Shown one piece after another: positions 2,227 to 61,150 of a stretch of DNA of 64,000 bases. This DNA is from Candidatus Yanofskybacteria bacterium RIFCSPHIGHO2_01_FULL_43_32 (lineage in GTDB: Bacteria; Patescibacteriota; Minisyncoccia; 2-02-FULL-40-12; GWA2-44-9), in NCBI GenBank assembly GCA_001794125.1, contig MGJF01000002.1, positions 108,514 to 172,513 of the forward strand, read 5' to 3'. The translations under genes were made by a program, and so were the position numbers. Under the pieces are notes generated by a model that saw nothing but the letters and a program-made list of their open reading frames with translations, was not told the origin of the DNA and ran no database searches. Within the stretch, counting starts at the first letter, position 1; each line of letters starts with the position of its first letter.

Positions 2227-3285
2227 ATGAAATTATTCCAGGAAAGAAAAATAGTTCGTGCTATTCAAAGTCAAATAAATAACTCTGACGAGCCAGGGGC
2301 TTATCGCACGTCGAATTTTGTACCAAAAGAAAGTTTCATTTTATATTTTTCTCAGTGGTTAATTAATGAAAAAGATAAATTAAATCGAGCTTCCCGCATC
2401 AAGCGTTACTTTATTGGGCTTAGACAAAACGAGGTCTCCGCTGCAGAACTGATGCAGGTGCTTCAATATTGCATTGATGACGGATATGTAACTAGAACTG
2501 AGTCTGACGGATACAGATTAACAAGTGCCGGAGCTTATCTGGCATCTTTATTTTTTTGGCTTCCTTCGATACCTGTTGCGGTATCTATAATAGCGATAGT
2601 AATTTCTTTTCTTGGCTTTTCTTATTCTAGGTCAACTTTTGAAAAACTTCTTCCAGAGCACCAAGCGAATATTATTTTTTCAGAAGAATCAATAAAGATT
2701 GCCGTTGACTCTAAAGGAGTTTGGTTTCAACCAGTCATTAAAAATATAGGGGTGACAACAGCAAGGGAGGTAAGATTTAGAATATATATTACACTTTTTC
2801 AAAAAAATAATCCGATTGCAGTTCCTGAATATTCCGTTAATCGAGTTTTTAATGACTATCTTGTGGCTGATTTAAATCCGGGTGAGAAAGCAAGTTTTGG
2901 GAGTTTTTCAATCGGAAGAACGTCAACAGCTAAAAATGGCAAAATCTTTGATTTATTTGAAGTCAAACCAGATGTGGCTATTATTTTTCACCTAAACTAT
3001 GTTGACCCTCTCTCTAAAAAAATAATGAGTAAGTTTTTTATTTTCCATTATTTTTATGGCAGGCTTTCCGCGAATTCACTAATTGGGGATGACTATCAAA
3101 TTATCAAGGATAAGATTGTTCAATATCTAGAGAACGAAGAAAACAAAGACCAAGAACTTGTTAATTTTGTCCGAGAAAAATATGAATTAAAAAAACACTT
3201 AGGTACCTCTGATGGCTTTAGTAAAATTTCGTTTGACTTTTTTATTTGTTTTCTAAGGATAGCTTCGTTCTTTTCTATAATTTAA
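2227..3285 (+). CDS. hypothetical membrane-anchored protein with N-terminal winged-helix-like segment
   Basis: Residues ~60-100 (VSAAELMQVLQYCIDDGYVTRTESDGYRLTSAGAYLA) look like a wHTH. They are followed by one TM helix (LFFWLPSIPVAVSIIAIVISFLGF) and a ~210-aa domain of unknown function. The gene is more AT-rich than its neighbours and is flanked by Rep-A and Rep-C repeats. Confidence 0.4.
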   Translation: MKLFQERKIVRAIQSQINNSDEPGAYRTSNFVPKESFILYFSQWLINEKDKLNRASRIKRYFIGLRQNEVSAAELMQVLQYCIDDGYVTRTESDGYRLTSAGAYLASLFFWLPSIPVAVSIIAIVISFLGFSYSRSTFEKLLPEHQANIIFSEESIKIAVDSKGVWFQPVIKNIGVTTAREVRFRIYITLFQKNNPIAVPEYSVNRVFNDYLVADLNPGEKASFGSFSIGRTSTAKNGKIFDLFEVKPDVAIIFHLNYVDPLSKKIMSKFFIFHYFYGRLSANSLIGDDYQIIKDKIVQYLENEENKDQELVNFVREKYELKKHLGTSDGFSKISFDFFICFLRIASFFSII

Positions 3286-3360
3286 AGGTGAGGATGGTTT
3301 TCGCGAGGCTTTGCCTGATTTTCTCATTTAAATTTAAGCCCAGCCCCATCGTTTTTATGT

Positions 3361-3601
3361 CACTTTGACGAGTCCCACACTCATGCATGAGTGTGGGACG
3401 AGGCGAATAAAAAGCGACGAAAGGTAACTGACTTAGAGGAACGACCCGCAGGCGCTTGGGCTTGGTTCTGCCAAGCGCCGAGGGAGAAGAAATTTTTATC
3501 GTCCCGATTTTTGTTCACAAAAATCGAGGATCCTCGATTGCGAAGCAATCGGGACTGGAATAAAAATATTCTGGTTCCGAGAAGTCAGTTGCCTTGAGCG
3601 A
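3361..3601 (+). repeat. Rep-C leader repeat copy 1 (upstream of secD), carrying two hairpin insertions
   Basis: About 150 nt here (gaggcgaataaaaagcga...cttagaggaacgacccgcaggcgcttgggcttggtt...ccaagcgccgagggagaagaaatttttatcg...ctggaataaaaatattctggttccgagaag.cagttgccttgagcga) recur at 11207-11362, with ~90% identity by eye. This copy additionally contains a hairpin at 3372-3399 and an inserted hairpin tcccgatttttgttcacaaaaatcgaggatcctcgattgcgaagcaatcgggac. Confidence 0.5.
3372..3399 (+). mobile_element. 28-bp perfect palindromic insertion (gtcccacactcatg/catgagtgtgggac) flanked by direct GACGAG duplication
   Basis: Copy 1 reads ttgACGAG[tcccacactcatgcatgagtgtgg]GACGAGgcgaataaaa. Copy 2 at 11207 reads tttaACGAGgcgaataaaa with no insert. 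This is consistent with insertion of a small palindromic element with a target-site duplication. Confidence 0.4.
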
Positions 3602-3606
3602 AACTC

Positions 3607-4923
3607 TTGCGCTCAAAAATTAGATATGTTTTAATAAACTTCGTGAAAGTTAACTATTTACTCATTGGAATAATTGTCGGGTCTCTGTTGCTCTTTGTTT
3701 TTGTGTATCCGCAGGGCGTAAGCAAATGGGTACCTGTGCCGAACGTGCCATTTCGTCTTGGTTTAGATTTGCTTGGCGGTACTCATCTTGTTTATCAGGC
3801 CGACCTTTCCAAATCGGAAAACAAAAATGATGCCATGCAGGGCGTCAGGGATGTAATTGAAAGAAGGGTTAATTTTTTCGGCGTTGCCGAGCCGTTGATT
3901 CAGATAAGCGGACAGGACCGTCTGATTGTTGAACTTGCCGGCATCAGCGACGTCGGTCAGGCCATCAAGTTGATAGGCGAAACCCCATTTCTTGAATTTA
4001 AAGAAACAAAAGCCGATACGCAGGCGATATTAGAGGCCCAGCAAAAGGGTCAGAGATTAAATGAAGATCCGTTGCAATCTACAGGGCTTAATGGCAGGCA
4101 TTTGAAACGGGCTGCGGTTGCGTTTGACCAGCAGACCTATCAGCCGCAAGTGAGTTTGGAATTAACCGACGAGGGCGCTAAACTCTTTGCCGAAATAACC
4201 AAGAAAAATTTAGGCAAGATAGTTGCGATATATTTGGACGGAGTTCCCATATCTACTCCCGTAGTCCAATCGGAAATTAAAGACGGCAACGCGGTCATTA
4301 CGGGAAAGTTCACTCCGATCGAATCCAAACTATTGGCGACAAGATTGAATTCCGGCGCTTTGCCTGTGCCGATATCTTTGGTTTCCCAGCAAACCATCGG
4401 CGCGTCTTTGGGAGCCGAATCTTTGGCAAAAAGTTTGAAGGCGGGGATTTACGGTTTGATATTGGTGGCTTTGTTCATGATTTTATTTTACCGGTTGCCG
4501 GGGGTGGTTTCGGTAATCGCTTTGGGGGTGTATGTTTTAATAGTCTTGTCTATTTATAAATTTATTCCGGTTACGCTGACCTTAGCCGGTATCGCCGGAT
4601 TTATTCTTTCGCTGGGCATGGCGGTGGACGCCAACGTTTTGATATTTGCCAGAATGAGGGAGGAATTAAAGGCCGGAAAATCAATCCGCGCGTCAATGCA
4701 TGAAGGGTTTTCACGCGCCTGGCTTTCAGTAAGGGACAGCCACGTGACCACTCTTATCGGCGCGTTTGTGCTGTACACGTTTACGACCTCTATAGTGAAA
4801 GGATTTGCCTTGACTTTGGGCATCGGAGTTTTGACGAGCTTGTTTACGGCTACGGTTGTGACAAGAACTATTTTGAATTTGATAAGCGGACCGAAAATGG
4901 AGAATAAAAAGAGGTTGTTCTAA
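3607..4923 (+). CDS. secD: protein translocase subunit SecD
   Basis: N-terminal TM, large periplasmic domain, C-terminal 6-TM SecD/SecF core (LVALFMILFYRLPGVV..., GFILSLGMAVDANVLIFARMREE). The start is uncertain: TTG at 3607 per the ORF track, with an in-frame GTG at 3643 also possible. Confidence 0.85.
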   Translation: MRSKIRYVLINFVKVNYLLIGIIVGSLLLFVFVYPQGVSKWVPVPNVPFRLGLDLLGGTHLVYQADLSKSENKNDAMQGVRDVIERRVNFFGVAEPLIQISGQDRLIVELAGISDVGQAIKLIGETPFLEFKETKADTQAILEAQQKGQRLNEDPLQSTGLNGRHLKRAAVAFDQQTYQPQVSLELTDEGAKLFAEITKKNLGKIVAIYLDGVPISTPVVQSEIKDGNAVITGKFTPIESKLLATRLNSGALPVPISLVSQQTIGASLGAESLAKSLKAGIYGLILVALFMILFYRLPGVVSVIALGVYVLIVLSIYKFIPVTLTLAGIAGFILSLGMAVDANVLIFARMREELKAGKSIRASMHEGFSRAWLSVRDSHVTTLIGAFVLYTFTTSIVKGFALTLGIGVLTSLFTATVVTRTILNLISGPKMENKKRLF

Positions 4924-4924
4924 A

Positions 4925-5827
4925 ATGAATAAAATCTATAAAATAATGTTCTGGGTCTCGATATTGCTGGCGGCTTCGGCTGTTATTGTTGTCTTAGTGT
5001 TTGGCTTGAGGTTGGGAGTTGATTTTAAAGGGGGAAGTGTTCTTGAGCTGGAGTTTAATCCGTCGGCTGGCGGAGGGAGACCGGAAATTGAAGCCATTCA
5101 AAAACATCTTTCCGAATTTAAAGATTTGTCGCTGACCCCCTCCGGGGCAAACGGCCTTATAATAAGAACCGGAGAATTGTCGGAACAGGACCACCAGATT
5201 ATTCTGAATAAATTTAAAACAGCTTTTCCGTCCTCCGGCCTGGAAGAAAGAAAATTTGATTCAGTGGGGCCTTTGATCGGGAATGAATTAAGGAATAAAA
5301 GCGTTACCGCAATAATATTGGTGTTGTTGGGAGTAATTATTTATATAGCCATTGTGTTCAGAAAGTTGTCGGGAGTATTGCCCGGCTGGGCAATGGGTCT
5401 TGCCGCGATTGTCGCTCTTGTTCACGATATTGTCATACCAACTGGAGCATTTGCTTTGCTGGGTCATTTTTACGGAATTGAAATAAGCGCCGTATTCGTA
5501 GCCGCGGCTCTTACTATTTTGGGATATTCGGTTTCCGATACCGTGGTTGTGTTTGATAGGGTCAGGGAGAATATTTTAAGAGGCGGAAATAGAGAAGCTT
5601 TTGGCGCCGTGGTCCATAAAAGCATCATGCAAACTTTGACCAGATCGCTTAACACCACATTTACAACCTTATTGTCTTTGATAGCGATTTATTTGTTTGG
5701 TGGGGAGAGTATTAAATACTTTGCTTTGGCCATGATTATGGGTATTTTTCTGGGAGCGTATTCTTCCATATTTGTCGCGTCGCCCTTATTGGTTTGGTGG
5801 AATAAAAGGTACGGGGTTGACGGCTAA
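4925..5827 (+). CDS. secF: protein translocase subunit SecF
   Basis: Begins at the ATG immediately after the secD stop. Has the SecF membrane core (VFDRVRENI, six C-terminal TMs). Confidence 0.85.
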   Translation: MNKIYKIMFWVSILLAASAVIVVLVFGLRLGVDFKGGSVLELEFNPSAGGGRPEIEAIQKHLSEFKDLSLTPSGANGLIIRTGELSEQDHQIILNKFKTAFPSSGLEERKFDSVGPLIGNELRNKSVTAIILVLLGVIIYIAIVFRKLSGVLPGWAMGLAAIVALVHDIVIPTGAFALLGHFYGIEISAVFVAAALTILGYSVSDTVVVFDRVRENILRGGNREAFGAVVHKSIMQTLTRSLNTTFTTLLSLIAIYLFGGESIKYFALAMIMGIFLGAYSSIFVASPLLVWWNKRYGVDG

Positions 5828-5897
5828 GAATAGTAATGATATTATATGTTCAAAGTTTAATTAAAGGGAATTACTTGGAGGGTATCGCCCTGTTTAT

Positions 5898-6968
5898 ATG
5901 AGCAAAAACAATTTAAATCTGTCAGGTCAGAGCGCGGTCACAAAGACGGTCGCAAGTTTGGTCAAAAACTTATCGGCAAGAAACAGGGACATAATTTCCA
6001 GACGTTTTGGGTTGAAGAACGGCAGGAAAGAAACCCTTGAATCCATCGGCAAAAGCTACGGCATTACCAGAGAGAGAGTGAGACAGATAGAGGAATTTAC
6101 CCTGACACAATTATCCAAAGGAACCCTCAATCCCGAAGTGGAAAAATATGCCGCTTTGGCCAAGAATATTTTGAACGAGAACGGCGGAATTATGAAAGAA
6201 AAAGATCTGTTCAAGGCCTTCTCCGGCAGTGACGCCGAATCGGTTCTCAATTCGTCTTTGGTTTTTGTTTTGACCTTGGACAAAGACCTGATTAAATTCA
6301 ACGATAACGATGATCTTCATTCTTTCTGGGCGGCCGACAATAATGTTCTGAATAATTTTAAAAACATGGCCTCGTCCTGTATAAATATTTTGGGTAAGTC
6401 GGGAAAAGTAAGTGCGGAGACGGAATTTTATAATTTAGCTAAAAAGAACGATGTTCCGGGATTAAACGGAGATCTTAATCCAAGGCACCTGGCGACTTAT
6501 ATAACGATTTCCAAGAACGTGGGCAAGAATATTTTTAATGAAGTGGGGCTGGTGTCCTGGCCGGAAATCAGACCCAAAGGCGTAAAAGACAAGGCCTACT
6601 TGGTGCTGAAGAAGAATAATGATCCTAAGCATTTCAGCGAGATTGCCAAACTGATAAATGCCGCCGGATTTCAGGGCAAGAAAGCGAATGTTCAGACCGT
6701 CCACAATGAATTGATAAAAGACAACAGGTTCGTTCTGGTAGGCAGGGGAATGTACGCCTTATCAGAATGGGGCTATAAATCCGGAACAGTAAAAGACGTC
6801 CTCGTCGACCTCCTGAAGAATTCTTCAAAACCGATGCCCAAGACCGCTCTTTTGACCAAAGTGATGAACGCCAGAATGGTAAAAGAAAACACGATTCTCT
6901 TGAATCTCCAGGACTCCAAGACCTTCGTTAAGAACGAAGACGGAACCTACGAATTAAAAGAGGCCTAA
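5898..6968 (+). CDS. sigma-70 region 4 domain-containing protein (CPR-type, no other sigma regions)
   Basis: N-terminus LSARNRDIISRRFGL.NGRKETLESIGKSYGITRERVRQIEEFTLTQL is a clear sigma70_r4 HTH. The remaining ~270 aa are uncharacterised. Confidence 0.55.
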   Translation: MSKNNLNLSGQSAVTKTVASLVKNLSARNRDIISRRFGLKNGRKETLESIGKSYGITRERVRQIEEFTLTQLSKGTLNPEVEKYAALAKNILNENGGIMKEKDLFKAFSGSDAESVLNSSLVFVLTLDKDLIKFNDNDDLHSFWAADNNVLNNFKNMASSCINILGKSGKVSAETEFYNLAKKNDVPGLNGDLNPRHLATYITISKNVGKNIFNEVGLVSWPEIRPKGVKDKAYLVLKKNNDPKHFSEIAKLINAAGFQGKKANVQTVHNELIKDNRFVLVGRGMYALSEWGYKSGTVKDVLVDLLKNSSKPMPKTALLTKVMNARMVKENTILLNLQDSKTFVKNEDGTYELKEA

Positions 6969-6976
6969 AAACAAAA

Positions 6977-7006
6977 GAGCCCCGCTACAGAGTGGGGTTC
7001 TTTTTT
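6977..7006 (+). terminator. intrinsic terminator after the 5898-6968 gene
   Basis: gagccccgctacagagtggggttc followed by tttttt. Confidence 0.5.
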
Positions 7007-7013
7007 ATAGCTG

Positions 7014-7125
7014 ACGCAACCTCTATGCATGCGGAGGGAGACACCTTTTTAAAAATTTGTTAATTTTGTAAAAAGTGTCTCCCTCCGCCGGTTGTTTAAG
7101 TGGCAAATGGCGGTTGGCCATAGAG
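7014..7125 (+). repeat. Rep-B hairpin repeat, copy A
   Basis: caacctctatgcatgcggagggagacacc[AT-rich loop]ggtgtctccctccgccggttgtttaagt.. Same architecture as 11051, 15206, 22415(-), 37944(-) and 61398(-). Confidence 0.55.
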
Positions 7126-7186
7126 ATTCAAACTCTCTCTGATTAAAACCGGTTCAAAAGGCAGGTTGGACGTACCTTACGCAGGG

Positions 7187-7215
7187 TTGACTTTATAAAC
7201 TTTCTCTGCTATAAT
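7187..7215 (+). promoter_or_regulatory. sigma-70 consensus promoter (TTGACT -17 nt- TATAAT) driving the DUF397 gene
   Basis: TTGACT 7187-7192, 17-nt spacer, TATAAT 7210-7215. RBS aaaggaaaagag before ATG 7255. Confidence 0.55.
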
Positions 7216-7254
7216 TTAGAGCGCAGTCGGCAATGACTGCAGAAAGGAAAAGAG

Positions 7255-7464
7255 ATGCTCAGTCGTATCAGAGTTCGCGATAGGGACTTCAAGATTTCGT
7301 CTTGGTCCAAGAACAATCCGAAGACTTGCGTCGCTGTGGCTATCAAGCCCAACGGCGTGGCTGTCCGCAACAGCAATGACTCGACGAAGAATACCGTGTT
7401 CTTCACCAACGATGAGTGGTCCGCCTTCGTCAAGGGCGTCAAAAACAACGAATTCGGTGTCTAA
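7255..7464 (+). CDS. DUF397 domain protein (69 aa), GC-rich foreign-looking cassette
   Basis: FKISSWSKNNPKTCVAVAIKPNGVAVRNSNDSTKNTVFFTNDEWSAFVKGVKNNEF matches the DUF397 pattern (W.KSS.S..N.CVEVA...VAVRDS.D....L.FT..EW.AFV.GVK.GEF). That family is typical of Streptomyces and other Actinobacteria. The gene is about 52% GC against a ~42% background and has its own promoter and terminator. Confidence 0.65.
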   Translation: MLSRIRVRDRDFKISSWSKNNPKTCVAVAIKPNGVAVRNSNDSTKNTVFFTNDEWSAFVKGVKNNEFGV

Positions 7465-7471
7465 CCCGAAC

Positions 7472-7500
7472 GGGGGGCAGAAATACCCCCCCCTTTTTTT
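7472..7500 (+). terminator. intrinsic terminator (GGGGGG/CCCCCC stem plus T7-8)
   Basis: cggggggcagaaatacccccccc followed by ttttttt. Confidence 0.6.
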
Positions 7501-7513
7501 AACCATTAAATTT

Positions 7514-7912
7514 ATGAAAACAATATTTTACCCAGGATTAGGAGAAACAAAGAAAAACTATAAATCATTATCTAAACATTTAATCGTGGCTGATATTGAT
7601 TGGAATACAGGAAAAGCCACATCTTCAAAAAACTGCGACACAGTTGTGAGTTTTTCGCTTGGAGCTGTTTTTTCTCTGGAGGCAGCTCTTAAAAGAAAAC
7701 TAAAAAAACTTATTCTTTGTTCGCCTACCCCATTTGAATCATTGGGCAAACACAAGGCAGAACAGGTGATTTTTATAATTGGTGAAAGGGAAAAATTTTT
7801 ACAAAAAATATTCAAACCATTATGTAAGAAAAATGTAAAAATGATTATAGTGCCAAAGGGAGATCATCGAATAAACAAAAATTACAAAAAGATACTTCTG
7901 CAAAACATATAA
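7514..7912 (+). CDS. small alpha/beta-hydrolase-like protein (hypothetical)
   Basis: Start at MKTIFYPGLGETKKNY. Has a nucleophile-elbow-like VSFSLGAV and a late GDHRIN His. The gene is AT-rich. This is a low-confidence fold-level call. Confidence 0.3.
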   Translation: MKTIFYPGLGETKKNYKSLSKHLIVADIDWNTGKATSSKNCDTVVSFSLGAVFSLEAALKRKLKKLILCSPTPFESLGKHKAEQVIFIIGEREKFLQKIFKPLCKKNVKMIIVPKGDHRINKNYKKILLQNI

Positions 7913-8078
7913 AATATGGGGGTAACCATACCTTGAACCTCTCCTGCCAATTGCCATTTATCCGCCCAAACAACCGGCGACAGAGAGTTTTGCGGGCTAA
8001 AGCACCGCACACTCCGAGAGAGGTTGTGTAAGCTGTTCTCTTTTAATTTAGCGCTTGCAGTAGTATAATGCATAGGTA

Positions 8079-9329
8079 ATGGATCAATTCTCTTTTGCTT
8101 TAGATTCTCTGCAAACTGTTTTGTGGTTTCTTGCTGGTTATTGGTGGATATTTCTGCCGGTTTTGTTGTTTTTTGGCCTGATGACCGCCTTTGAGACCTA
8201 TACAAAAATGAAATACATCAAATCCATAAAATGGACTCTTGTGAATTTGAAAATTCCGCAAGACCCCGGCAAGAGTCCCAAGGCCACGGAGCAAATATTT
8301 GCCGCGCTCCACGGTACTTTGCCTCCTCCGATAATATGGAGAAACAAATTTTTTAAGGGTACTATGGTTAACTGGATTTCTTTAGAGATAGTCGGTATCG
8401 GAGGAGAAACCCATTTTTACGTAAGAATGCCGGAACAATTTAAGAAATTGGTTCAATCCCAGATTTACGCGCATTATCCCGATGCGGAAATTTCTGAAGT
8501 TGCCGACGACTATGTTAACTTACTGCCTGCGTCTTTGCCAAATGATGCGTACGACCTTTTTGGGTCGGAAATAATTTTAAGCAAGGAGGATTTTTACCCT
8601 ATCAGGACTTATCCCGAATTTGAAGAGAAGTCCAGCGGTCCCGATTATGTAAAAAGAATTGACCCCTTGGCATCCTTGGCGGAAGTTCTTTCGAGTTTAG
8701 AAGCGGGCGAATTCTTGGGCGTACAATTGATTATCAGGCCGACCGGAGACGGTTGGGTTAAAAAAGGCCAGTCCGAGATGGATAAATTGCAAGGCAAGAA
8801 GTCTAAAGCCGGAGAAAGCATGCTGTCTAATCTTGTTTTTGAAATTGATAAAATTATTCCCGGGCATGTGGAGGTTGAAAAATCAGAAAAGAAACCGGAA
8901 CAAACTCAATTAACTTCGGGCAAACAGGAAGCCATAAAAGCGGCTGAAAGAAAAATGTCTAAGCTTGGCTACGAATGCGGAATAAGATTTATGTATTCGG
9001 GGCCCAAAGAGAATTTTCACAGAGCTCACATATCCGGCGTAGTGGGGGTTTTTAAGCAGTATGCTTTGCAGACCATTAACAGCTTTAAGCTCAATGGTCC
9101 TACGATAACCGCCGGCAAATGGCCTTTCAAAAAACAGAAAGAGTATAACAAAAAAATATTTTTCTTAAATAAATATAAAAACCGGTCATTGCCGGCGAAG
9201 GCCTTTATACTGAACATAGAGGAATTAGCAACGATATACCATCTTCCTGATATCGGCGTGAAGTCGCCGTTACTGCCGAGGGTTGAAGCAAAGAAAGGCG
9301 AACCGCCGGTCGGGTTGCCCATAGGTTAG
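8079..9329 (+). CDS. hypothetical membrane-anchored protein, upstream partner of the TraD-like ATPase
   Basis: N-terminal TM (LWFLAGYWWIFLPVLLFFGLM), then a ~370-aa soluble part with no recognised motif. Separated by only 16 nt from the downstream ATPase on the same strand. Confidence 0.4.
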   Translation: MDQFSFALDSLQTVLWFLAGYWWIFLPVLLFFGLMTAFETYTKMKYIKSIKWTLVNLKIPQDPGKSPKATEQIFAALHGTLPPPIIWRNKFFKGTMVNWISLEIVGIGGETHFYVRMPEQFKKLVQSQIYAHYPDAEISEVADDYVNLLPASLPNDAYDLFGSEIILSKEDFYPIRTYPEFEEKSSGPDYVKRIDPLASLAEVLSSLEAGEFLGVQLIIRPTGDGWVKKGQSEMDKLQGKKSKAGESMLSNLVFEIDKIIPGHVEVEKSEKKPEQTQLTSGKQEAIKAAERKMSKLGYECGIRFMYSGPKENFHRAHISGVVGVFKQYALQTINSFKLNGPTITAGKWPFKKQKEYNKKIFFLNKYKNRSLPAKAFILNIEELATIYHLPDIGVKSPLLPRVEAKKGEPPVGLPIG

Positions 9330-9345
9330 GCCGGATAATTAAATT

Positions 9346-11016
9346 ATGGTTTCATCGGAACAAAAAGAAACGGTTTTTTTGGGGGAGACAAGCTTTAGGA
9401 ACAATAAGGTCCGTTTTGGCATTAAACAGGATGACCGCAGAAGGCACATGTATGTCGTCGGTTCAACCGGAATGGGAAAGTCCGAATTTCTCAAGAGTAT
9501 GGCCATTCAGGATATTGAAGCTGGACGGGGCGTATGTTTTATTGATCCTCACGGCGATTCGGCCGATGATCTGCTCGACTATGTTCCGGAAAACCGGATA
9601 AAAGACGTTATTTATTTTGATCCGGATGACCTGCAATATCCCATAGCATTTAACGTTATGGAGGGAATAGGGTTTGACTATAGGCACTTGGTTGCATCGG
9701 GTCTCGTGGGCGTGTTTAAAAAAATTTGGGGAGCTGAAGCGTGGTCCGGAAGGATGGAATATATTTTAAATAATACCATTTTGGCTCTTCTTGAATATCC
9801 GGATTCAACCCTTCTGGGAATCAATAGATTGATGTCCAGTAAAGAATATCGGAAAAAAGTTGTTGCCAATGTAACTGACCCGATCGTTAAAGCTTTTTGG
9901 ACTGACGAATTTGCCAAATACGCCGACAAATTTGCTACAGAAGCTACGGCGGCCATACAAAACAAAGTCGGACAATTCGCCTCAAATAATGTCATCAGAA
10001 ATATTCTCGGCCAGCCCAAATCCAAGATAAATATCAGAAAGATCATGGATGAAGGCAAAATCATGATTGTTAATGTTTCAAAAGGCAAGATTGGAGAAGA
10101 CGCCTCGCGTTTATTGGGAGCTTTTCTTATTACTAAAATACAATTGGCGGCGATGTCGAGAGTTGATACGCCCGAATCAGAAAGAAAGGATTTTTATCTG
10201 TATGTAGACGAGTTTCAAAATTTTGCGACGGAATCTTTCGCTAATATTTTGTCGGAAGCCAGAAAATATCATTTGAGCTTGGTGATGGCCCATCAATATA
10301 TAAAACAAATGGAAGAACCGGTTATGGATGCGGTGTTTGGAAACGTCGGCACTATTGTTTCTTTCAGGGTCGGCGCCGAAGATGCCGAATATTTGGAAAA
10401 ATGGTTCCAGCCAGATTTTATGATGAATGATATTGTAAATCTCGGGAAGCGTAGTATGTATCTGAAGTTGATGATAAGCGGTGTCTCGTCAAAAGGATTT
10501 TCGGCCTCAACGCTGGAAAGATTTCCCAAACTGGAAAACTCAAACCGCCAGGCAATAATTGACGCCTCACGTGAGGCTTATAGCACCCCGAAGAGTATCG
10601 TAGAAAAAGAAATAGCCGAATGGGCCGGGCCGGTTGCTGAAGAATCTTTCACGAGACCAATACCGGAGCGCAAAAGAGATGACAGGCCCTTCAGCTCGGT
10701 TCAGGGCAAGCCAGCTTATGGACCGCCTCCCCTTCGACCAAACTCAGGTCAGGGCAGAGAAGGGAGGCCTTATCCGCCGAGAAGAGAAGAAAATAGGCCG
10801 CCATCTAGACCGCCTCAAAATAATATTCAAACCATCAAGCCCAAAGAGGCGTCTTTGAGCGCCTTAACTGCCCCAGTCGATTTCAGGGGCCGTAAAATAG
10901 ATGATAAATGGAAGGGAAAGAAACCTTCCTTCGCTAAAGCTTCGGAGGGCAAAAAGGAAGTAGACACCGGCGAATTGAAGAAACTGCTGGAGGAGTCGTT
11001 GAAAAAGAAAGAATAA
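9346..11016 (+). CDS. TraD/TrwB/VirD4-like P-loop NTPase (type IV coupling-protein / DUF87-like family) with disordered Pro/Arg-rich C-terminal tail
   Basis: Walker A YVVGSTGMGKSEF, FIDPHGD, Walker B FYLYVDEFQNFA, LSLVMAHQY arginine-finger region. The last ~130 aa are low-complexity (PPPLRPNSGQGREGRPYPPRREENRPPSRPPQ). Confidence 0.5.
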   Translation: MVSSEQKETVFLGETSFRNNKVRFGIKQDDRRRHMYVVGSTGMGKSEFLKSMAIQDIEAGRGVCFIDPHGDSADDLLDYVPENRIKDVIYFDPDDLQYPIAFNVMEGIGFDYRHLVASGLVGVFKKIWGAEAWSGRMEYILNNTILALLEYPDSTLLGINRLMSSKEYRKKVVANVTDPIVKAFWTDEFAKYADKFATEATAAIQNKVGQFASNNVIRNILGQPKSKINIRKIMDEGKIMIVNVSKGKIGEDASRLLGAFLITKIQLAAMSRVDTPESERKDFYLYVDEFQNFATESFANILSEARKYHLSLVMAHQYIKQMEEPVMDAVFGNVGTIVSFRVGAEDAEYLEKWFQPDFMMNDIVNLGKRSMYLKLMISGVSSKGFSASTLERFPKLENSNRQAIIDASREAYSTPKSIVEKEIAEWAGPVAEESFTRPIPERKRDDRPFSSVQGKPAYGPPPLRPNSGQGREGRPYPPRREENRPPSRPPQNNIQTIKPKEASLSALTAPVDFRGRKIDDKWKGKKPSFAKASEGKKEVDTGELKKLLEESLKKKE

Positions 11017-11050
11017 ACAGCTCCAGCCAGCACAATTTATTTCGATAGTT

Positions 11051-11195
11051 CACACAACCTCCATGCATGCGGAGGGAGACGCCTTCATCCCACGAAGAAC
11101 CGCATAAAACCCTGCTGGGTTTTTGCTCTCTCTCGGCTACCCGCCTGCGAACGTTCTTCTTTGGAATGAAGGCGTCTCCCTCCGCCGGTTGCTAT
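11051..11195 (+). repeat. Rep-B hairpin repeat, copy B, with a ~90-bp element nested in its loop
   Basis: cacaacctccatgcatgcggagggagacgcc[...]ggcgtctccctccgccggttg. The usual AT-rich loop is replaced by 11083-11172. Confidence 0.5.
11083..11172 (+). mobile_element. short palindromic element with Rep-A-type terminal inverted repeats (cttcatccca ... tggaatgaagg) inserted in the Rep-B loop
   Basis: The terminal sequences match the Rep-A ends. The interior (cgaagaaccgc...gcgaacgttcttctt) is itself palindromic. Confidence 0.4.
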
Positions 11196-11206: not shown

Positions 11207-11362
11207 CACTTTAACGAGGCGAATAAAAAGCGAAAGGCAATTGGCTTAGAGGAACGACCCGCAGGCGCTTGGGCTTGGTTCCTCCAAGCGCCGAGGGAGA
11301 AGAAATTTTTATCGCTGGAATAAAAATATTCTGGTTCCGAGAAGCCAGTTGCCTTGAGCGAG
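11207..11362 (+). repeat. Rep-C leader repeat copy 2 (upstream of the HD-domain gene)
   Basis: See 3361-3601. It lacks the two hairpin insertions of copy 1. Confidence 0.5.
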
Positions 11363-12935: not shown

Positions 12936-13008
12936 TGCGCCCAGTTGGATTCGAACCAACGACCGTCTCCTTAAAAGGGAGCTGCTCTACCAACTGAGCT
13001 ATGGGCGC
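12936..13008 (-). tRNA. tRNA-Lys (anticodon TTT)
   Basis: Minus strand reads GCGCCCATAGCTCAGTTGGTAGAGCAGCTCCCTTTTAAGGAGACGGTCGTTGGTTCGAATCCAACTGGGCGCA. The 7-bp acceptor, D, anticodon (loop CTTTTAA, U33, A37) and T arms all fold. The T-loop is TTCGAAT. CCA is not encoded. Confidence 0.8.
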
Positions 13009-15172: not shown

Positions 15173-15205
15173 TCGGACAAATGTCCGGTTTTTTAATTTT
15201 AATAA

Positions 15206-15327
15206 CTCACACAACCTCTATGCATGACTGCGGGGTGCCCTTTTCTAAAATCTTACTAATTTTATAAAAGGGCACGCCCTCCGCCAGTTGTTTAAGTAAT
15301 AGCTTACAATTGGCAATAGGGTTTCAA
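15206..15327 (+). repeat. Rep-B hairpin repeat, copy C
   Basis: cacacaacctctatgcatgactgcggggtgccc[ttttctaaaatcttactaattttataaaa]gggcacgccctccgccagttgtttaagt. Confidence 0.55.
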
Positions 15328-15590
15328 AGTAATAAAGCGCAGCCCGGCATCTTATTGAAGCCCGTCCGAACAGGCGGGCTTGGTGTCCACGCCATAGTTC
15401 GTAAGAGAAGCTATTCAAGCTTTAGGCTTTCCGTCAGATGAGTAATGCTATTCAATAAACATCATGATATGGCAGGCTGGACCCGCCGTCGTGAGGACAA
15501 GTGGAGCCAATCGCTGGAGCAATCGGAACGGGCTGAAATAAGGTGTCGGGCGGAGCTTGTCTGACAATGTTTTTATGTTAAGATAAAATC

Positions 15591-22414: not shown

Positions 22415-22500
22415 CAGGCAACCGGCGGAGGGCATGCCCTTTTATAAAATTAGCAAGATTTTAGAAAAGGGCATGCCGCAGCATGCATGGAGGTTGTGTC
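22415..22500 (-). repeat. Rep-B hairpin repeat, copy D (reverse orientation)
   Basis: Reverse complement: cacaacctccatgcatgctgcggcatgccc[ttttctaaaatcttgctaattttataaaa]gggcatgccctccgccggttg. Confidence 0.55.
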
Positions 22501-31246: not shown

Positions 31247-31759
31247 TCACTTCGAGGTTGCGTGCGGCGCTCGAGTAGGGACTGATTTTCTTGGCGCCAA
31301 CACGACCGGGTGTGAAGTTGTCGGTGTCTTTCCGTCGATATGCTTGCGGTGCTGATGTTCCTGCGGATAGGCAGGAACGAAGAGGACAGACGGACTCCAT
31401 CCATACGTCGCGGGCGGATCAGTCAACAAGGTTCCGTCGAGTCGTCGTCGCGGTGACTCCGGCGGGAAGTCGAGCCATGACGATGCACCGGGGCGACTGC
31501 CGATGATGAAGATCTTCGGACCATCACAACCGGAGCAGATCACGGGAGGCGGCAGATGTTCGAGACGTGATACGATGGCGGCCGCTTCTGCGGGCGTCAG
31601 CGGCGGCGCGCTTGAGGTGATTGACTGCGTGCTCGGTTTGTTCGTCACGGTGCGCGTCTGTGCTTCTGCGCGAGTGTCCCACACGAAATTGACGGGGATT
31701 ACGAACATGGCGCAGATTACGATTGTCGGAATATCGAAGACTTTCTTTTTCTTTTCCAC
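31247..31759 (-). CDS. secreted/exported hypothetical protein, Pro-rich (GC-rich foreign-looking cassette)
   Basis: GTG start at 31759 with AGGAG 7 nt upstream. N-terminus KKKKVFDIPTIVICAMFVIPVNFVWDTRAEA is a signal peptide with an AxA site. About 60% GC. No recognisable domain. Confidence 0.45.
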   Translation of the reverse strand: MEKKKKVFDIPTIVICAMFVIPVNFVWDTRAEAQTRTVTNKPSTQSITSSAPPLTPAEAAAIVSRLEHLPPPVICSGCDGPKIFIIGSRPGASSWLDFPPESPRRRLDGTLLTDPPATYGWSPSVLFVPAYPQEHQHRKHIDGKTPTTSHPVVLAPRKSVPTRAPHATSK

Positions 31760-31816
31760 CGTTGTTCTCCTGCGCATTCAGCGCATACCGAGTTTTGACA
31801 GAACTAACCGTTTTAT

Positions 31817-37943: not shown

Positions 37944-38025
37944 GCAACCGGCGGAGGGTGTGCCCTTTTATAAAATTAGCAAGATTTTAGAAAAGGGCAC
38001 CCCGCAGTCACGCATGGAGGTTGTG
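37944..38025 (-). repeat. Rep-B hairpin repeat, copy E (reverse orientation)
   Basis: Reverse complement: cacaacctccatgcgtgactgcggggtgccc[ttttctaaaatcttgctaattttataaaa]gggcacaccctccgccggttg. Confidence 0.55.
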
Positions 38026-38056
38026 AGGTGCTATGGATATGGCATAATTATAAAAC

Positions 38057-39576: not shown

Positions 39577-39837
39577 ATGCTCGTTCCGTGTCCTTTCAGG
39601 GGCGACCACAAAATTCGAGAGGGCCACATGCACGGCCCGAGCCAGTGTCCGCCGCCGGCTGGTGAACACGGTGACCACCGCCGCAACAAGCGTCTTCGCG
39701 CTCGGTTTCGTGCCAGGCAGTCAGAAGGTATCATTGAGAACCGTGGCGTGGCTGTTGCCGGCGTCGGCGGGAATCAGGCCAAGTCCCATCGGCAGGGAAA
39801 GAAGGCGGCCAAGACCAAGACCGGGACCAGTGTCTAA
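39577..39837 (+). CDS. 86-aa basic, His/Pro/Arg-rich hypothetical protein (GC-rich cassette)
   Basis: MLVPCPFRGDHKIREGHMHGPSQCPPPAGEHGDHRRNKRLRARFRARQSEG... About 62% GC. Textbook promoter, SD and terminators. No known domain. Confidence 0.4.
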   Translation: MLVPCPFRGDHKIREGHMHGPSQCPPPAGEHGDHRRNKRLRARFRARQSEGIIENRGVAVAGVGGNQAKSHRQGKKAAKTKTGTSV

Positions 39838-39852
39838 CGACTGTCTTCGGTC

Positions 39853-39912
39853 GGGGGCGACAACGTGTCGCCCCCTAATTTTTTAAATGGAGCATTTGCT
39901 CCTTTTTTGTTT
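39853..39912 (+). terminator. two tandem intrinsic terminators
   Basis: gggggcgacaacgtgtcgccccc followed by taatttttt, then ggagcatttgctcc followed by ttttttgtttt. Confidence 0.55.
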
Positions 39913-40188
39913 TCTTAAAATCGCTCAACCCTAACCCATTCTCGGGCACGGCATAAATTCTTGCTGGAATTTTGCCTCGTATTACAGAGATTCCCGGACT
40001 AAAGCACCGTGAACCTTCTCCGAGCCACTCCGTCGAGTTCCGTAAGTCCCTCTAATAGATTAGGGTTTCGCTTTTGCTTAATTAAGAGCGACCAGCCATA
40101 TACCCACAGGGAGAACTTGCGCAGGCCCGAAGCTTGGTGCTTGGTGAGGGCCGAGCATGTAGATAGCGCCGAGCCGCTGGAGCGAGGC

Positions 40189-40221
40189 GACTATCGGTCG
40201 AGTCGGGGGTATGTGGCTGGG
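40189..40221 (+). promoter_or_regulatory. conserved ~33-nt core of a ~60-nt motif (gctgagg.gactatcggtcgagtcgggggtatgtggctggg.gcga) ~40 nt upstream of the UDG start; second copy at 52103-52134 upstream of rseP
   Basis: Near-identical 32-nt core in both places. Looser similarity extends ~15 nt on each side. Confidence 0.3.
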
Positions 40222-40260
40222 AGCGAATCTGTTCACAACCCAAACAGCTTATAGTAAACT

Positions 40261-48598: not shown

Positions 48599-50152
48599 AT
48601 GACGGGACTAATTTTTCAGGGAATCCTGATTGCGGCCCTCGCAGGTCTGGCTATCAAGTTTTTCCTGGACTACCAGAGAAATAATCTGGAAATTACGTGG
48701 GGAGAATACGGCCTTGGGCTTTTGGCAATCAGCTTCGTGTTGACTCCGCTGATAGTCTGGGCCGGCTGGTCGGTAGTAAGGTCGAGCAACCTTTCGTTCA
48801 ATGAGTACAGGAACGGTTGGGAACTGCAGGCTGTGGCCGAACCGGTTCAGTGTGCCCGTGACGGCCCTTGCTGGCACGAGTATGACTGCGACCCGTACAT
48901 CGTCATGGTTTCGTATCAGTGCAATTGTACGACGGATAAAGACGGACGCAGTTCGTGTAGTACGTGCTGGCGTCCGGAAACGCGTTATCACGATTGCCCG
49001 TATGTTACAGTAGAGACATCGTATTCCGTGCAGACGACTCTTGGCAGTTACACGATTGCCGAGCATCGGTTTCCGGAAAATCCGCAATCTCATCGGTGGC
49101 GGACTTCGAAAAACATTCCCCAGTATGTAATTGACAGAGTTGGCGTTAGTGAGCCGCAGTTTTGGAAAGCGGCTGACGTCAGAGTCCGGGCAGGAAAGCC
49201 CGGGCCTGTAACGGCGCGAGCCAGTTACGACAACTACATTTTGGCGAGTGATTCAACTATTCTGAACCAATATTCGGGAGAAGTTGAAAAGTTGCTTGCC
49301 GTGAAAATGTTGCCGGAGTTGTCTCACGGTTTGTATGATTACTACATGGCGAGGAAGGCCTACTCTGTCGGCCCGACGCTTCGTGTAGATACAGGAGCGT
49401 GGTCCGAAAAAGTGGCATACCTGAACGCGGCACTCGGTTCGGAACTTCAGGGAGATCTTCACGTTGTTCTGATTCATGATGCTGACCTCAGAAAGGTCGG
49501 CAGTAGTCCGGATGAATATGCCCTAACGCTAAAAGCCTACTGGCAGAATACGAAACACTTCCAGAAGGATGCTTTGAGTAAAAATACCATTGTCGTTGTT
49601 GTTGGAACAAAGGACGGTGAGTCTGTCAGTTGGGTCCGCGCGATGATCGGCATGCCGCTTGGCAACGAGCGGATGATTACCGAGATCCGAAACAGTCTTG
49701 TGGGTGTGCCGTTTTTGCCGGAGGCGGTTATCGGAGGCATCCGGGGCCATTTTGAAATCTATGGCCAGAAGGTAAAAAGCAGTCAGGAAGTGAACGGCCG
49801 TCTGGGCTCTATCATCTGGGGACGGGAATTGAAAGAAACCCGTTTCAGGCGAGTGAGCATGTCGTCCAAAGATCCTGACGATTTCGGGCAAGGCTTCAGA
49901 TACCTTGCCAATGAAATCCAACTCACATGGTTCCAGCATGGCATGATCCTTTTTCTGTCATTGCTGGGGTGCGGTGTCGTGTGGTACGCTGCTGCAGCGC
50001 ACGGCATTCGTGATCCGCGCAATCATTCCGGGCCATTCGATGTCAACCGCATCAAGAAGTGGTGGAAGTCCCAGTGGCGGGAGATGCGGGCCTGGATCCG
50101 TGTTCAGAAAACCAGCATCGCCGACAAGGTCGGCGGAAGGAGGACGGAATGA
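48599..50152 (+). CDS. hypothetical 3-TM membrane protein with large Cys-rich extracytoplasmic domain and basic Trp-rich C-terminal tail (GC-rich cassette gene 1)
   Basis: TM1 LIFQGILIAALAGLAIKFF, TM2 GLGLLAISFVLTPLIVWAGWSVV. 10 Cys between residues 85 and 130 (CARDGPCWHEYDCDPY...CNCTTDKDGRSSCSTCW...CPY). TM3 MILFLSLLGCGVVWYAAAA. Tail KKWWKSQWREMRAWIRVQK. About 53% GC. No family recognised. Confidence 0.5.
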   Translation: MTGLIFQGILIAALAGLAIKFFLDYQRNNLEITWGEYGLGLLAISFVLTPLIVWAGWSVVRSSNLSFNEYRNGWELQAVAEPVQCARDGPCWHEYDCDPYIVMVSYQCNCTTDKDGRSSCSTCWRPETRYHDCPYVTVETSYSVQTTLGSYTIAEHRFPENPQSHRWRTSKNIPQYVIDRVGVSEPQFWKAADVRVRAGKPGPVTARASYDNYILASDSTILNQYSGEVEKLLAVKMLPELSHGLYDYYMARKAYSVGPTLRVDTGAWSEKVAYLNAALGSELQGDLHVVLIHDADLRKVGSSPDEYALTLKAYWQNTKHFQKDALSKNTIVVVVGTKDGESVSWVRAMIGMPLGNERMITEIRNSLVGVPFLPEAVIGGIRGHFEIYGQKVKSSQEVNGRLGSIIWGRELKETRFRRVSMSSKDPDDFGQGFRYLANEIQLTWFQHGMILFLSLLGCGVVWYAAAAHGIRDPRNHSGPFDVNRIKKWWKSQWREMRAWIRVQKTSIADKVGGRRTE

Positions 50153-60626: not shown

Positions 60627-60669
60627 GGCTTCTCCTTTCGAATCTCTGTCTGGCTGGCGCGGTCCCGGC

Positions 60670-61134: not shown

Positions 61135-61150
61135 GGCTGTCTCCTTCGTC

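Follow-up and report, generated by a model that had tools for sequence, protein, structure and literature searches.

Ever since the description of bld mutants, it has been an open question what BldB and the other DUF397 proteins do biochemically. They are still termed enigmatic in recent work, which also states that the family is absent outside Actinobacteria (PMC10294661, PMC7159879). DUF397 proteins are described as having a single domain of no more than 100 aa, in which a terminal alpha-helix comes after the beta-strands (Kaur et al. 2020). Two motifs have been published, CxE within strand 2 and RDS where strand 3 ends (PMC7159879), also given in the forms CVEVA and VAVRDSK (PMC10294661). 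In Streptomyces and other Actinobacteria, the DUF397 gene is paired with a gene for an XRE-family regulator, WhiJ. BldB lacks DNA-binding activity and forms hetero-oligomers with paralogues whose genes adjoin whiJ genes (PMC10294661). In S. clavuligerus, the RNA and ribosome footprints of DUF397 genes exceed those of the paired XRE genes (PMC8269248). The DUF397 protein SCO4542 is reported to repress WhiJ (PMC8269248).

The DUF397 gene studied here (7255..7464; 69 aa) lies in a 64 kb stretch of DNA, referred to as the window, in which neighbouring proteins are identical to those of Candidatus Yanofskybacteria MAGs, as expected from the original prediction of a CPR genome. Features are on the forward strand unless stated. 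The product matches PF04149 with a score of 46.6 bits (gathering cut-off 24; E 3.9e-12) across profile positions 6–55 of 55, and PF04149 is also found in all but one of 95 homologous clusters, confirming that the ORF is a true DUF397 gene. Its AF2 model (pLDDT 84.8) has three strands (residues 26–31, 34–39 and 47–50), a bridge at 13–14 and a C-terminal helix (52–63), in agreement with the published size and fold; no solved DUF397 structure was found for comparison. The claim that the protein matches the family residue for residue at conserved positions was not upheld. Despite the clear PF04149 match, the CxE/RDS signature is lacking, as the window protein has C-V-A-V-A and V-A-V-R-N-S-N, with the Cys and Arg retained and both acidic residues replaced. 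At the site of the CxE Glu, members of the CPR clade have A, M, E, Q, S, T or L; RDS is often RNS in this clade, which bears its own signature, SSWSKNNPKTCV. The replacement of the acidic residues is a clade-specific deviation. The Cys (Cys25 in the window protein) is kept without exception in CPR and actinobacterial DUF397 sequences alike. The window contains a single DUF397 gene, and L042 and L049 are the only compared loci in which tandem copies were observed.

The original prediction described the gene as standing alone. However, a conserved partner gene (7514..7912; 132 aa, GC 0.31, GC3 0.26), encoding a predicted mini alpha/beta-hydrolase, begins 49 nt downstream. Copies of this gene encoding proteins that are 92%, 92% and 70% identical sit 3' of DUF397 in three other contexts, and the same downstream partner is found in four unrelated genomic contexts. 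When approximately 28 non-actinobacterial DUF397 loci (mostly CPR, going by record title) were compared, an alpha/beta-hydrolase-like ORF was found directly 3' of DUF397 in 18, with a gap of 35–90 nt. The partners fall into three size classes, 132–148, approximately 160–190 and 212–253 aa. Metagenomic loci found via the hydrolase include DUF397 42–87 nt 5' of it in 16 of 23 cases. Approximately 25 sequence-distinct Parcubacteria cassettes have differing flanks, a constant orientation and always a gap of 35–90 nt, and one putative viral contig holds both genes. The linkage is not obligatory, as approximately 10 of the 28 DUF397 loci have no hydrolase within 4 kb and 6–7 of the 23 hydrolase loci lack DUF397. 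A neighbour analysis of the hydrolase-less DUF397 loci revealed no other recurrent partner. Pairwise distances of DUF397 and partner correlate (Mantel r 0.65, with 0/5000 permutations as high), as expected for any two co-inherited genes. Apparent fusions were not counted: P0137 resembles a read-through product on a contig of 1.4 kb, the ORFs of P0100, P0109 and P0110 are called too long and in a different frame, and the N-terminal domain of P0173 is unrelated. We conclude that DUF397 is not an orphan here. It opens a conserved cassette of two genes, the second of which encodes a mini alpha/beta hydrolase, and this pairing and architecture recur in many Parcubacteria/Patescibacteria genomes.

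The assignment of the 132 aa partner to the alpha/beta-hydrolase fold comes from structure prediction. Its AF2 model (pLDDT 96.5, pTM 0.91) has five main strands, a few two-residue strand fragments and four helices. When the model was used to query the PDB with Foldseek, the top matches were nearly all esterases, cutinases and serine hydrolases, including RBBP9 (TMq 0.55–0.71; probability 0.94–1.00 in nearly all), and an acyl-protein thioesterase/lysophospholipase was also among the neighbours. The predicted catalytic residues, Ser48 (in SFSLGA), Glu93 and His118, follow the nucleophile-acid-His order. Ser48 is in a nucleophile elbow, S-F-S48-L-G, after the strand at 43–47, Glu93 follows the strand at 82–90 and His118 that at 108–113. 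PGLGE probably forms the oxyanion loop. Across 26–29 sequences, among them partners down to 38% identity, Glu93 and His118 do not vary and Ser48 is nearly invariant. Weak profile matches to the alpha/beta hydrolases 3trd and 9pjb align the elbow and the His motif. Pfam returned nothing for the 132 aa protein at E<=1, and the NCBIfam match to BioV (pimeloyl-ACP methyl ester esterase), at 15.6 bits against a cut-off of 150, falls outside curated membership. Larger partners at other loci have sub-threshold matches to Abhydrolase/Hydrolase_4, and only that of L032 passes a cut-off (FSH1, 25.9 bits against 21). In all, 56 homologues of the hydrolase were found. The family is tiny: a set of 1.84 billion proteins contains 38 representatives at E<=1e-10.

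The expression signals of the two genes differ. A sigma-70-type promoter (7187..7215) precedes DUF397, consisting of a -35 TTGACT (7187–7192), a 17-nt spacer and a TG-extended -10 TATAAT (7210–7215). It matches the consensus at 11 of 12 positions and is the sole such site within 6800–7700. The 5' leader (7223..7248), defined from sequence and folding, contains a 6–7 bp hairpin, GCAGTC..GACTGC (7223–7240), followed by a Shine-Dalgarno (SD) sequence, AAGGA (7244–7248); the hairpin is kept in L007 with a G-C to A-T change. Between the genes is an intrinsic-terminator-like hairpin (7472..7500) with GGGGGG, an 8-nt loop, CCCCCC and a T run. The promoter and the G6/C6 terminator had both been predicted correctly. 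Promoters matching at least 10 of 12 positions lie 5' of DUF397 in 14 of 24 cassettes, and an SD of at least 4 nt in 18 of 24. The sequences of the intercistronic gaps are unrelated, yet a GC-rich hairpin folds in 25/25 distinct gaps, and 22 of the 25 passed a scan for a hairpin plus T-tract terminator. A strong terminator in this position may alternatively serve to insulate two independent genes from each other. The hydrolase gene in the window has neither an SD nor a promoter-like site of its own and appears to be dependent on read-through; an SD is likewise missing ahead of 24 of 26 hydrolase partners. Rfam searches of the leader and intergenic regions at gathering thresholds found tRNA-Lys as the sole match, and an E-value scan of 6900–8000 found nothing beyond generic hairpin noise. 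Composition differs too, in that a GC3-rich DUF397 gene recurrently adjoins a GC3-poor hydrolase gene. In most of 17 cassettes for which both values were available, including that in the window, GC content lies above the locus average in DUF397 and below it in the partner, and the hydrolase uses AT3-rich codons, many of them ATA.

The location given by the original prediction, in the gap after a sigma-region-4 gene, was correct. The segment between this Sigma70_r4/HARE-HTH gene (5898..6968) and a DUF8128 gene is an insertion (6969..8078). Within it lie the cassette and one copy of an intergenic repeat specific to the lineage (7002–7135), and it is bracketed by inverted copies of a 13-mer (7012–7024 on the forward and 8019–8031 on the reverse strand). 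The cassette itself (7187..7922) is approximately 735 bp, as DNA homology with copies at other genomic sites (L007, L010 and L011) extends from the promoter to approximately 10 nt past the hydrolase stop. L010 is from a Zambryskibacteria genome. It is missing from this site in four related Yanofskybacteria contigs. In three of these (L198, L200 and L201) the site is empty, with the flanking genes only 6–46 nt apart, and in L199 it contains a 630-nt insert that includes the repeat without the cassette. The assembly of L198 carries the cassette at another place. In one genome pair, the flanking genes have pS values of 0.76–0.79, compared with 0.55 for DUF397 and 0.43 for the partner, so that the cassette has diverged far less than its flanks. 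With the genes' own codon usage, saturation is expected at 0.76–0.79. Simulated values were as low as those observed in 3/1000 and 0/1000 cases, respectively. We conclude that the cassette has been exchanged horizontally among Parcubacteria/Patescibacteria genomes. The repeat was considered as its vehicle and rejected, as the motif is absent beside the cassettes of other genomes. Both cassette genes are under purifying selection, with dN/dS of 0.04–0.16 for DUF397 (0.10–0.16 for the gene in the window) and 0.05–0.18 for the partner (0.05–0.07 for the hydrolase against its two closest copies, L007 and L010), and amino-acid conservation across orders is 83–92%.

By analogy with BldB and WhiJ, we tentatively favour a model in which DUF397, made abundantly in CPR bacteria, binds the product of the downstream gene, a scarce mini-hydrolase with a Ser-Glu-His triad, and modulates or gates it. 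This may well be the case, though we stop short of calling it probable. The cassette layout would set a very skewed stoichiometry, with DUF397 far in excess. DUF397 would be transcribed from the near-consensus promoter and translated from a good SD and GC3-rich codons, with the leader and 3' hairpins probably stabilising its mRNA. The hydrolase, with no promoter, no SD and AT3-rich codons, would be made solely from transcripts that read through the terminator. DUF397 might then act as an inhibitor, as a lid or specificity subunit, or as a stabiliser of the hydrolase, for which the fold neighbours that bear on the substrate are carboxylesterases, thioesterases and cutinases. DUF397 would, in this model, be a portable regulatory module that binds proteins and has exchanged a transcription factor for an enzyme as its client. 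More speculatively, BldB-type proteins would be a general regulatory subunit and not a peculiarity of actinobacterial development. In Parcubacteria an abundant DUF397 oligomer would then gate, as part of a mobile two-protein switch, an alpha/beta hydrolase of 132 aa that is possibly the smallest known with a complete Ser-Glu-His triad. If this more doubtful extension is true, the biochemical role of DUF397 could be approached in vitro with the CPR pair as a minimal system.

The same arrangement could be that of a toxin-antitoxin or effector-immunity pair, a selfish, addictive and mobile cassette in which the mini-hydrolase does harm, for instance as an esterase or lipase that attacks membranes or an essential ester, and the abundant DUF397 is its antidote. 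The gene order is that of type II systems, where an antidote made in excess is encoded ahead of a scarce toxin, and the cassette moves between genomes, occupies different sites and occurs on a putative viral contig. DUF397 was originally proposed as a toxin-antitoxin component (PMC2701414). However, the supposed toxin is found without DUF397 in the 6–7 loci noted above, Pfam detected no DNA-binding domain in either product, and a PADLOC defence-system scan matched neither. In addition, 14 Streptomyces DUF397 proteins showed no toxin-antitoxin behaviour (PMC10364602), and the very low dN/dS and the conservation across orders fit a housekeeping-like role better than an arms-race element. We consider this explanation unlikely.

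It is also improbable that two independent genes merely travel together, with the terminator fully insulating a highly expressed DUF397, whose target would be unlinked, from a weakly and separately expressed hydrolase. The strength of the terminator, the opposite codon compositions and the sizeable minority of loci in which each gene is solitary would be accounted for, whereas the adjacency would not, as it holds with the same orientation and gap range across approximately 25 distinct cassettes with differing flanks and three hydrolase size classes. Separate expression is also difficult to reconcile with the apparent dependence of the hydrolase on read-through.

A further alternative, which we regard as very unlikely, is that DUF397 is a substrate or carrier, bearing an acyl or other ester or thioester group on the invariant Cys25 or on the serines of SSWS, which the mini-hydrolase removes in the manner of an acyl-protein thioesterase or a BioV-like esterase. 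The invariance of the Cys, the acyl-protein thioesterase/lysophospholipase and RBBP9 among the fold neighbours and the faint BioV match are consistent with this, but all of the matches are weak or fold-generic, that to BioV being far below its cut-off, and no acylating enzyme is linked to the cassette. Excess of a substrate over its enzyme is normal, so stoichiometry is uninformative here.

The original prediction also noted an Actinobacteria-like composition of the gene. As a compositional outlier in a CPR genome the gene stands, its GC3 of 0.74 (GC 0.52) being 3.5 SD above the window mean of 0.467 +/- 0.078. An Actinobacteria-like composition is therefore right in direction but not in magnitude, as an actinobacterial copy (L037) has a GC of 0.74 and a GC3 of 0.98. 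The high GC3 has persisted after approximately one synonymous substitution per site between copies, which points to maintenance rather than to a fading donor signature. Translational selection was rejected as its cause, because the ribosomal protein S20 gene in the window is ordinary (GC3 0.48) and the shift affects NNY, NNR and four-fold codons alike. The 95 closest clusters are small proteins, 57–100% identical, and their named sources are Yanofsky-, Taylor-, Minisyncoccota or Parcubacteria, except for one record labelled Verrucomicrobiota. In a genome scan, the 18 most similar DUF397s were all non-actinobacterial (mostly CPR by record title; up to 87–91% identity), and the best actinobacterial match was 54% identical. 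Copies belonging to neither CPR nor Actinobacteria also occur (L038–L041 and L048–L050). An NJ tree split into Actinobacteria and the rest misplaces only 3 of 77 sequences, with bootstrap support that is weak because only 61 columns could be aligned. The nearest relatives are thus from CPR, not Actinobacteria, and the foreign flavour of the gene is real but the exchange runs among CPR genomes. The predicted lack of an XRE partner was confirmed and extended. An HMM built from 32 actinobacterial WhiJ-like ORFs lying 5' of DUF397 found nothing in the 64 kb, searched in all six frames (best match spurious, E 0.075), or in the non-actinobacterial loci examined, while the Acidimicrobiales locus L037 was recovered with an E of 3e-86. 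The view that DUF397 is an orphan recently acquired from Actinobacteria and stranded without its XRE partner, which would explain the GC3 and the missing XRE gene, is already contradicted by these relatives, the near-clean tree split, the signature of the CPR clade, the maintained GC3 and the conserved non-XRE partner, and is scarcely credible.

A well-populated Parcubacteria clade with a different, predicted enzymatic partner overturns the Actinobacteria-only distribution of DUF397. The CPR pair offers a simpler test bed for the family, as it involves two small soluble proteins, one with a predicted assayable activity, and an unusually small alpha/beta hydrolase would be of interest for minimal-fold work and enzyme engineering. 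A mobile promoter-to-stop cassette under strong purifying selection is probably important to the biology of streamlined CPR genomes; scavenging of lipids or esters and interaction with a host are possible roles.

LipA of B. subtilis, at 181 aa, is a minimal alpha/beta hydrolase. Like LipA, BioV (profile length 167) and the RBBP9/YdeN-type proteins (approximately 180–190 aa), the cassette hydrolase has the core fold, a nucleophile elbow (S-F-S-L-G), an acid after the next-to-last strand and a His after the last, but it is approximately 50 residues shorter and its acid is Glu. In RsbQ-RsbP of Bacillus subtilis, a small alpha/beta hydrolase is encoded beside, and works with, a partner that is non-enzymatic or regulatory. 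There is no PAS/PP2C partner in the cassette, and this comparison illustrates a possible logic only. With type II toxin-antitoxin modules, as proposed for XRE-DUF397 pairs (Makarova et al. 2009), the cassette shares a small, mobile two-gene form, varied contexts and a first gene predicted to be expressed far above the second. It differs in having no DNA-binding antitoxin, in having a terminator between the genes instead of translational coupling, and in that both genes are often solitary; actinobacterial DUF397 proteins, moreover, were non-toxic.

The closest parallel is with the WhiJ-BldB pairs. As in these, the small protein belongs to PF04149, falls within 60–100 aa with predicted beta-strands and a C-terminal helix, and has the invariant Cys and the EW.AF..G.K.GEF C-terminal helix of actinobacterial DUF397. 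The partner gene is adjacent, and the small protein is apparently in excess, as measured in S. clavuligerus (PMC8269248) and as suggested here by the promoter, terminator and SD. However, DUF397 is the second gene in Actinobacteria and the first here, a median of 19 paralogues per actinobacterial genome contrasts with a single copy per locus and one in 64 kb, and the Glu of CxE is variable in the CPR clade, which often has RNS for RDS. The host phylum here is Patescibacteria, and where the actinobacterial partner is an HTH-DUF5753 regulator, that of the cassette is a mini alpha/beta hydrolase with the fold of an enzyme.

The 69-aa product of the gene at 7255..7464 (+) is a DUF397 protein, matching Pfam PF04149 over positions 6-55 of the 55-position profile (E 3.9e-12, 46.6 bits; gathering score 24). 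As the original prediction had it, the gene has its own promoter and G6/C6 terminator. A consensus scan found a TTGACT-17 nt-TG-extended TATAAT site at 7187-7215 (+; 11/12 matches), the sole promoter-like site within 6800-7700, and recovered a terminator-like hairpin (G6, 8-nt loop, C6 and a T run) at 7472-7500 (+). The leader from promoter to start codon holds a 6-7 bp hairpin (7223-7240, +) and a Shine-Dalgarno sequence, AAGGA (7244-7248, +). The gene has a GC of 0.52 and a GC3 of 0.74; among the window's 54 ORFs with 120 aa or more, mean GC3 is 0.467 ± 0.078 and the maximum 0.63. The long antisense ORF at 7216..7506 is a by-product of this GC3-rich sense frame. The gene upstream (5898..6968, +) encodes Sigma70_r4 and HARE-HTH domains, as expected from the predicted position downstream of a sigma-region-4 gene. 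As the proteins of neighbouring genes are identical to Candidatus Yanofskybacteria MAG entries (OGN01638/40/42), the CPR-like character of the genome is confirmed.

The gene had been described as stand-alone, which it is not: an ORF encoding a small alpha/beta-hydrolase-like protein follows at 7514..7912 (+). A DUF397 search of the protein database returned 95 clusters (57-100% identity, nearly all 64-75 aa) whose named sources are Yanofsky-, Taylor-, Minisyncoccota, Parcubacteria or Patescibacteria, the exception being P0069, a cluster labelled Verrucomicrobiota. When the contigs of four clusters were inspected, three had a same-strand 132-aa ORF, without a Pfam match, 45-90 nt 3' of DUF397. 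The three neighbourhoods differ widely: IF3-L35-L20/Band_7/GIY-YIG in a second Yanofskybacteria MAG, NYN-domain genes in a Zambryskibacteria MAG and, in a third lineage, an ABC ATPase with a peptidase M16 gene. The window ORF and these three copies are 70-92% identical. More widely, 18 non-actinobacterial loci out of ~28 have an alpha/beta-hydrolase-like ORF that starts 35-90 nt past the DUF397 stop. The ORFs form three size classes (132-148, ~160-190 and 212-253 aa), the larger ones giving weak, consistent Pfam matches to Abhydrolase, Hydrolase_4 and FSH1. Conversely, 16 of 23 metagenomic partner loci have DUF397 42-87 nt upstream, and the remainder have unrelated upstream genes. In comparisons of cassette copies, with dS ~0.65-1.2 for the closer pairs, dN/dS ranges over 0.04-0.16 (DUF397) and 0.05-0.18 (hydrolase); both are real genes under selection.

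No such 132-aa ORF follows DUF397 in the fourth contig, L014 (GCA_040384145.1, labelled Verrucomicrobiota; 359 kb, GC 0.50). At 5001-7278 it has a DUF397 of the CPR type, which shares 59% identity with the window's and bears the SSWSKNNPKTCVAVA signature, and a 470-aa GDSL lipase/esterase gene ~640 nt downstream. Either the DUF397 gene has left CPR by transfer, or it lies beside another serine esterase by chance. L118 (IMGVR_UViG_3300009515_000007), a 39-kb contig classed as viral, encodes a 67-aa CPR-type DUF397, a 70-aa ORF and a 136-aa mini-hydrolase consecutively at 2998-4125. The contig may represent a phage or prophage that transports the pair, or its viral classification may be wrong.

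The partner is predicted to be a minimal serine hydrolase. Its family motifs are PGLGE, S-F-S48-L-G-A, I-I-G-E-K-E93 and G-D-H118; across aligned sequences down to 38% identity, all keep E93 and H118 and nearly all keep S48. In an AlphaFold2 model (29-sequence alignment; pLDDT 96.5, pTM 0.91), Ser48 follows strand 43-47, Glu93 strand 82-90 and His118 strand 108-113, so that the modelled order of strands and helices is the canonical nucleophile-acid-His order. Nearly all Foldseek matches in the PDB (TMq 0.55-0.71) are alpha/beta hydrolases, among them esterases, cutinases, RBBP9 and lysophospholipase, and the partner profile matched alpha/beta hydrolases among PDB sequences marginally (E 0.02-0.05), with the elbow and His motifs aligned. 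With no Pfam match and an NCBIfam score of 15.6 bits for BioV (cut-off 150), the partner is a member of neither curated collection. Family members are few: when 1.84 billion representatives were searched in full with HMMER, 136 proteins reached E<=1e-3 and 38 reached E<=1e-10, most of them with 130-150 aa. Classical 'minimal' alpha/beta hydrolases such as Bacillus subtilis LipA have ~170-190 aa; at 132 aa the partner is well under this size, also when set against the BioV profile and RBBP9 chain lengths. In one homologue, P0173 (276 aa), the mini-hydrolase is preceded by a fused 143-aa N-terminal domain that, as read by eye, shows a nucleotidyltransferase-like GS...DxD pattern; the gene call may have merged two genes.

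The cassette is mobile within CPR. Window DNA is homologous to cassettes at other sites from ~7190, at the promoter, to ~10 nt beyond the hydrolase stop; this ~735 bp encodes no recombinase. The surrounding string SecD-SecF-(Sigma70_r4+HARE-HTH)-DUF8128-(TraD/VirD4-like HerA-type ATPase), window 3607-11016, is kept in 4/4 related Yanofskybacteria contigs (L198-L201), making five genomes with the window, and their DUF8128 orthologues are 57-84% identical. Three of the four (L198, L200, L201) have a gap of 6-46 nt between the sigma_r4 and DUF8128 genes and no cassette; L199 has a 630-nt spacer, again without a cassette, sharing a lineage-specific repeat with the window. Assembly GCA_001794205.1 holds both L198, with no cassette at this site, and L008, with one between Band_7 and GIY-YIG genes. 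Between this assembly and the window genome, five syntenic genes are 58-78% identical and saturated at synonymous sites (pS 0.76-0.79), whereas DUF397 is 83% identical with pS 0.55 and the hydrolase 92% identical with pS 0.43. Resampling codons from each gene's own usage (1000 simulations) gave saturation expectations of 0.79 ± 0.09 and 0.76 ± 0.07, and the observed values were reached in 3/1000 and 0/1000 simulations, respectively. As cassette pS falls below that of the saturated flanks for the same genome pair, we conclude that the cassette postdates the divergence of these genomes. The Zambryskibacteria copy is as close to the window (hydrolase 92% identical).

Several other features of the window were recorded. 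Because the sigma-r4/HARE-HTH and DUF8128 genes almost abut, the arrangement suggests that a sigma-like protein with region 4 only and a coupling-protein-like ATPase are linked in an operon. In region 4 alone, the former also matches MzaA, an anti-phage-system sigma factor. A lineage-specific intergenic repeat family lies at 7002-7135, 11040-11191 and 15197-15328, where a long GC-rich inverted repeat (GCGGAGGGAGAC...GTCTCCCTCCGC) comes after its core ACRCAACCTCYATGCATG (5 matches against 0.01 expected). The core recurs at 22482-22499(-) and 38009-38026(-), with a partial inverted copy at 8019-8031(-), and inverted copies of a 13-mer of this family bracket the insert at 7012-8031. L199 carries this repeat at the corresponding site. 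The repeat does not flank cassettes in other genomes and has no Rfam match. The spacer at 6969-7254 has a folding z of -5.85. A second family comprises direct copies at 3398-3601 and 11214-11361 (94-100% identical, separated by ~7.8 kb) and, at 1973-2082, an inverted copy of 70% identity, all intergenic and flanking the secDF...TraD-like block. Short stretches of GC 0.53-0.62 in this 0.43-GC window (31247-31777, 39577-40254, 48599-50542 and 60613-61167) hold doubtful ORFs only and could be structured RNAs missed by Rfam, which at gathering thresholds found only tRNA-Lys (12936-13008).

The layout of the cassette recurs. All 25 sequence-distinct gaps between the two genes are predicted to fold into a GC-rich stem-loop, the gap sequences being mutually unrelated, and 22/25 passed a hairpin-plus-T-tract terminator scan. 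A promoter matching at least 10/12 positions precedes DUF397 in 14/24 cassettes and a Shine-Dalgarno sequence of at least 4 nt in 18/24, while the hydrolase lacks the latter in 24/26 and has no promoter-like site before it in the scanned part of the window (6800-7700). From this layout we infer a large excess of DUF397 over the hydrolase, whose message would be produced only via read-through of the terminator. Codon usage also divides the pair: GC3 of DUF397 versus hydrolase is 0.74 versus 0.26 in the window and 0.78 versus 0.23 in L026, a second cassette locus, and in most of the 17 cassettes with both values, the window's own included, the locus GC is exceeded by DUF397 and not reached by the partner. 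In the window, two-fold and four-fold codons are affected alike, and 7/13 hydrolase Ile codons are ATA. Across the window's cassette (7255-7912) and 16 others the split, with DUF397 rich and the hydrolase poor in GC3 when set against the respective host genome, persists over ~1 synonymous substitution per site. As the ribosomal S20 gene is without the bias, ordinary translational selection offers no obvious fit.

The best explanation, a tentative one, is that DUF397 acts as a stoichiometric protein-binding modulator of the mini-hydrolase. A toxin-antitoxin or immunity-like pair seems unlikely, and so, equally, do independent hitch-hiking genes. The linkage is non-obligatory, which speaks against a strict toxin-antidote relation and also weakens the modulator model. 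Pairwise distances of the two proteins correlate across 26 cassettes (Mantel r 0.65, 0/5000 permutations as high), a value that co-inheritance alone would also give. We consider it very unlikely that DUF397 is itself an acyl carrier or a substrate of the predicted enzyme.

Least credible of all is the reading of the gene as an orphan import from Actinobacteria. None of the 18 sequences most similar to the window DUF397 is actinobacterial, and record titles place most of them in CPR; the best actinobacterial match has 54% identity. When Actinobacteria were split from the rest by neighbour joining, 3/77 sequences were misplaced (61 columns, weak bootstrap support). A scan of one genome per GTDB species found 483 relatives; most of the best 30 are labelled Patescibacteria, a few have other or no phylum labels, and Actinobacteria appear at <=56% identity only. 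The CPR clade has the signature SSWSKNNPKTCV, does not conserve the CxE Glu of actinobacterial DUF397, and in the window reads RNS for the actinobacterial RDS motif. A WhiJ-like XRE ORF lies directly upstream of DUF397 in 32 actinobacterial loci; an HMM of these ORFs matched nothing in the six window frames or in the non-actinobacterial loci fetched by then, in line with the absence of an XRE partner noted from the sequence. Both the original observation and its interpretation thus stand in part: the gene encodes DUF397 and lacks an XRE partner, but it is neither alone nor actinobacterial. A few DUF397 genes occur in contigs labelled Peribacteria, Nitrospirae, Bacteroidota, Cloacimonadota, Desulfarculaceae and an Endozoicomonas relative, where neighbour analysis found no recurrent partner.

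Two papers confine the family to Actinobacteria (PMC7159879, PMC10294661), and our literature search found no mention of DUF397 together with Patescibacteria. Some of these proteins already carry the NCBI label 'DUF397 domain-containing protein' and UniRef calls the partner 'Alpha/beta hydrolase', so individual annotations exist; the pairing and its properties appear to be undescribed. In Streptomyces, BldB does not bind DNA, hetero-oligomerises with paralogues encoded beside whiJ genes and acts via WhiJ-type regulators (PMC10294661). DUF397 exceeds its paired XRE in transcripts and ribosome footprints, and one DUF397 represses WhiJ (PMC8269248); overexpression of 14 DUF397 proteins was not toxic (PMC10364602). 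The CPR cassette shares with WhiJ-BldB a genetically linked partner and, as inferred here, DUF397 in excess, but its client would differ, being a mini-hydrolase rather than a WhiJ-type regulator.
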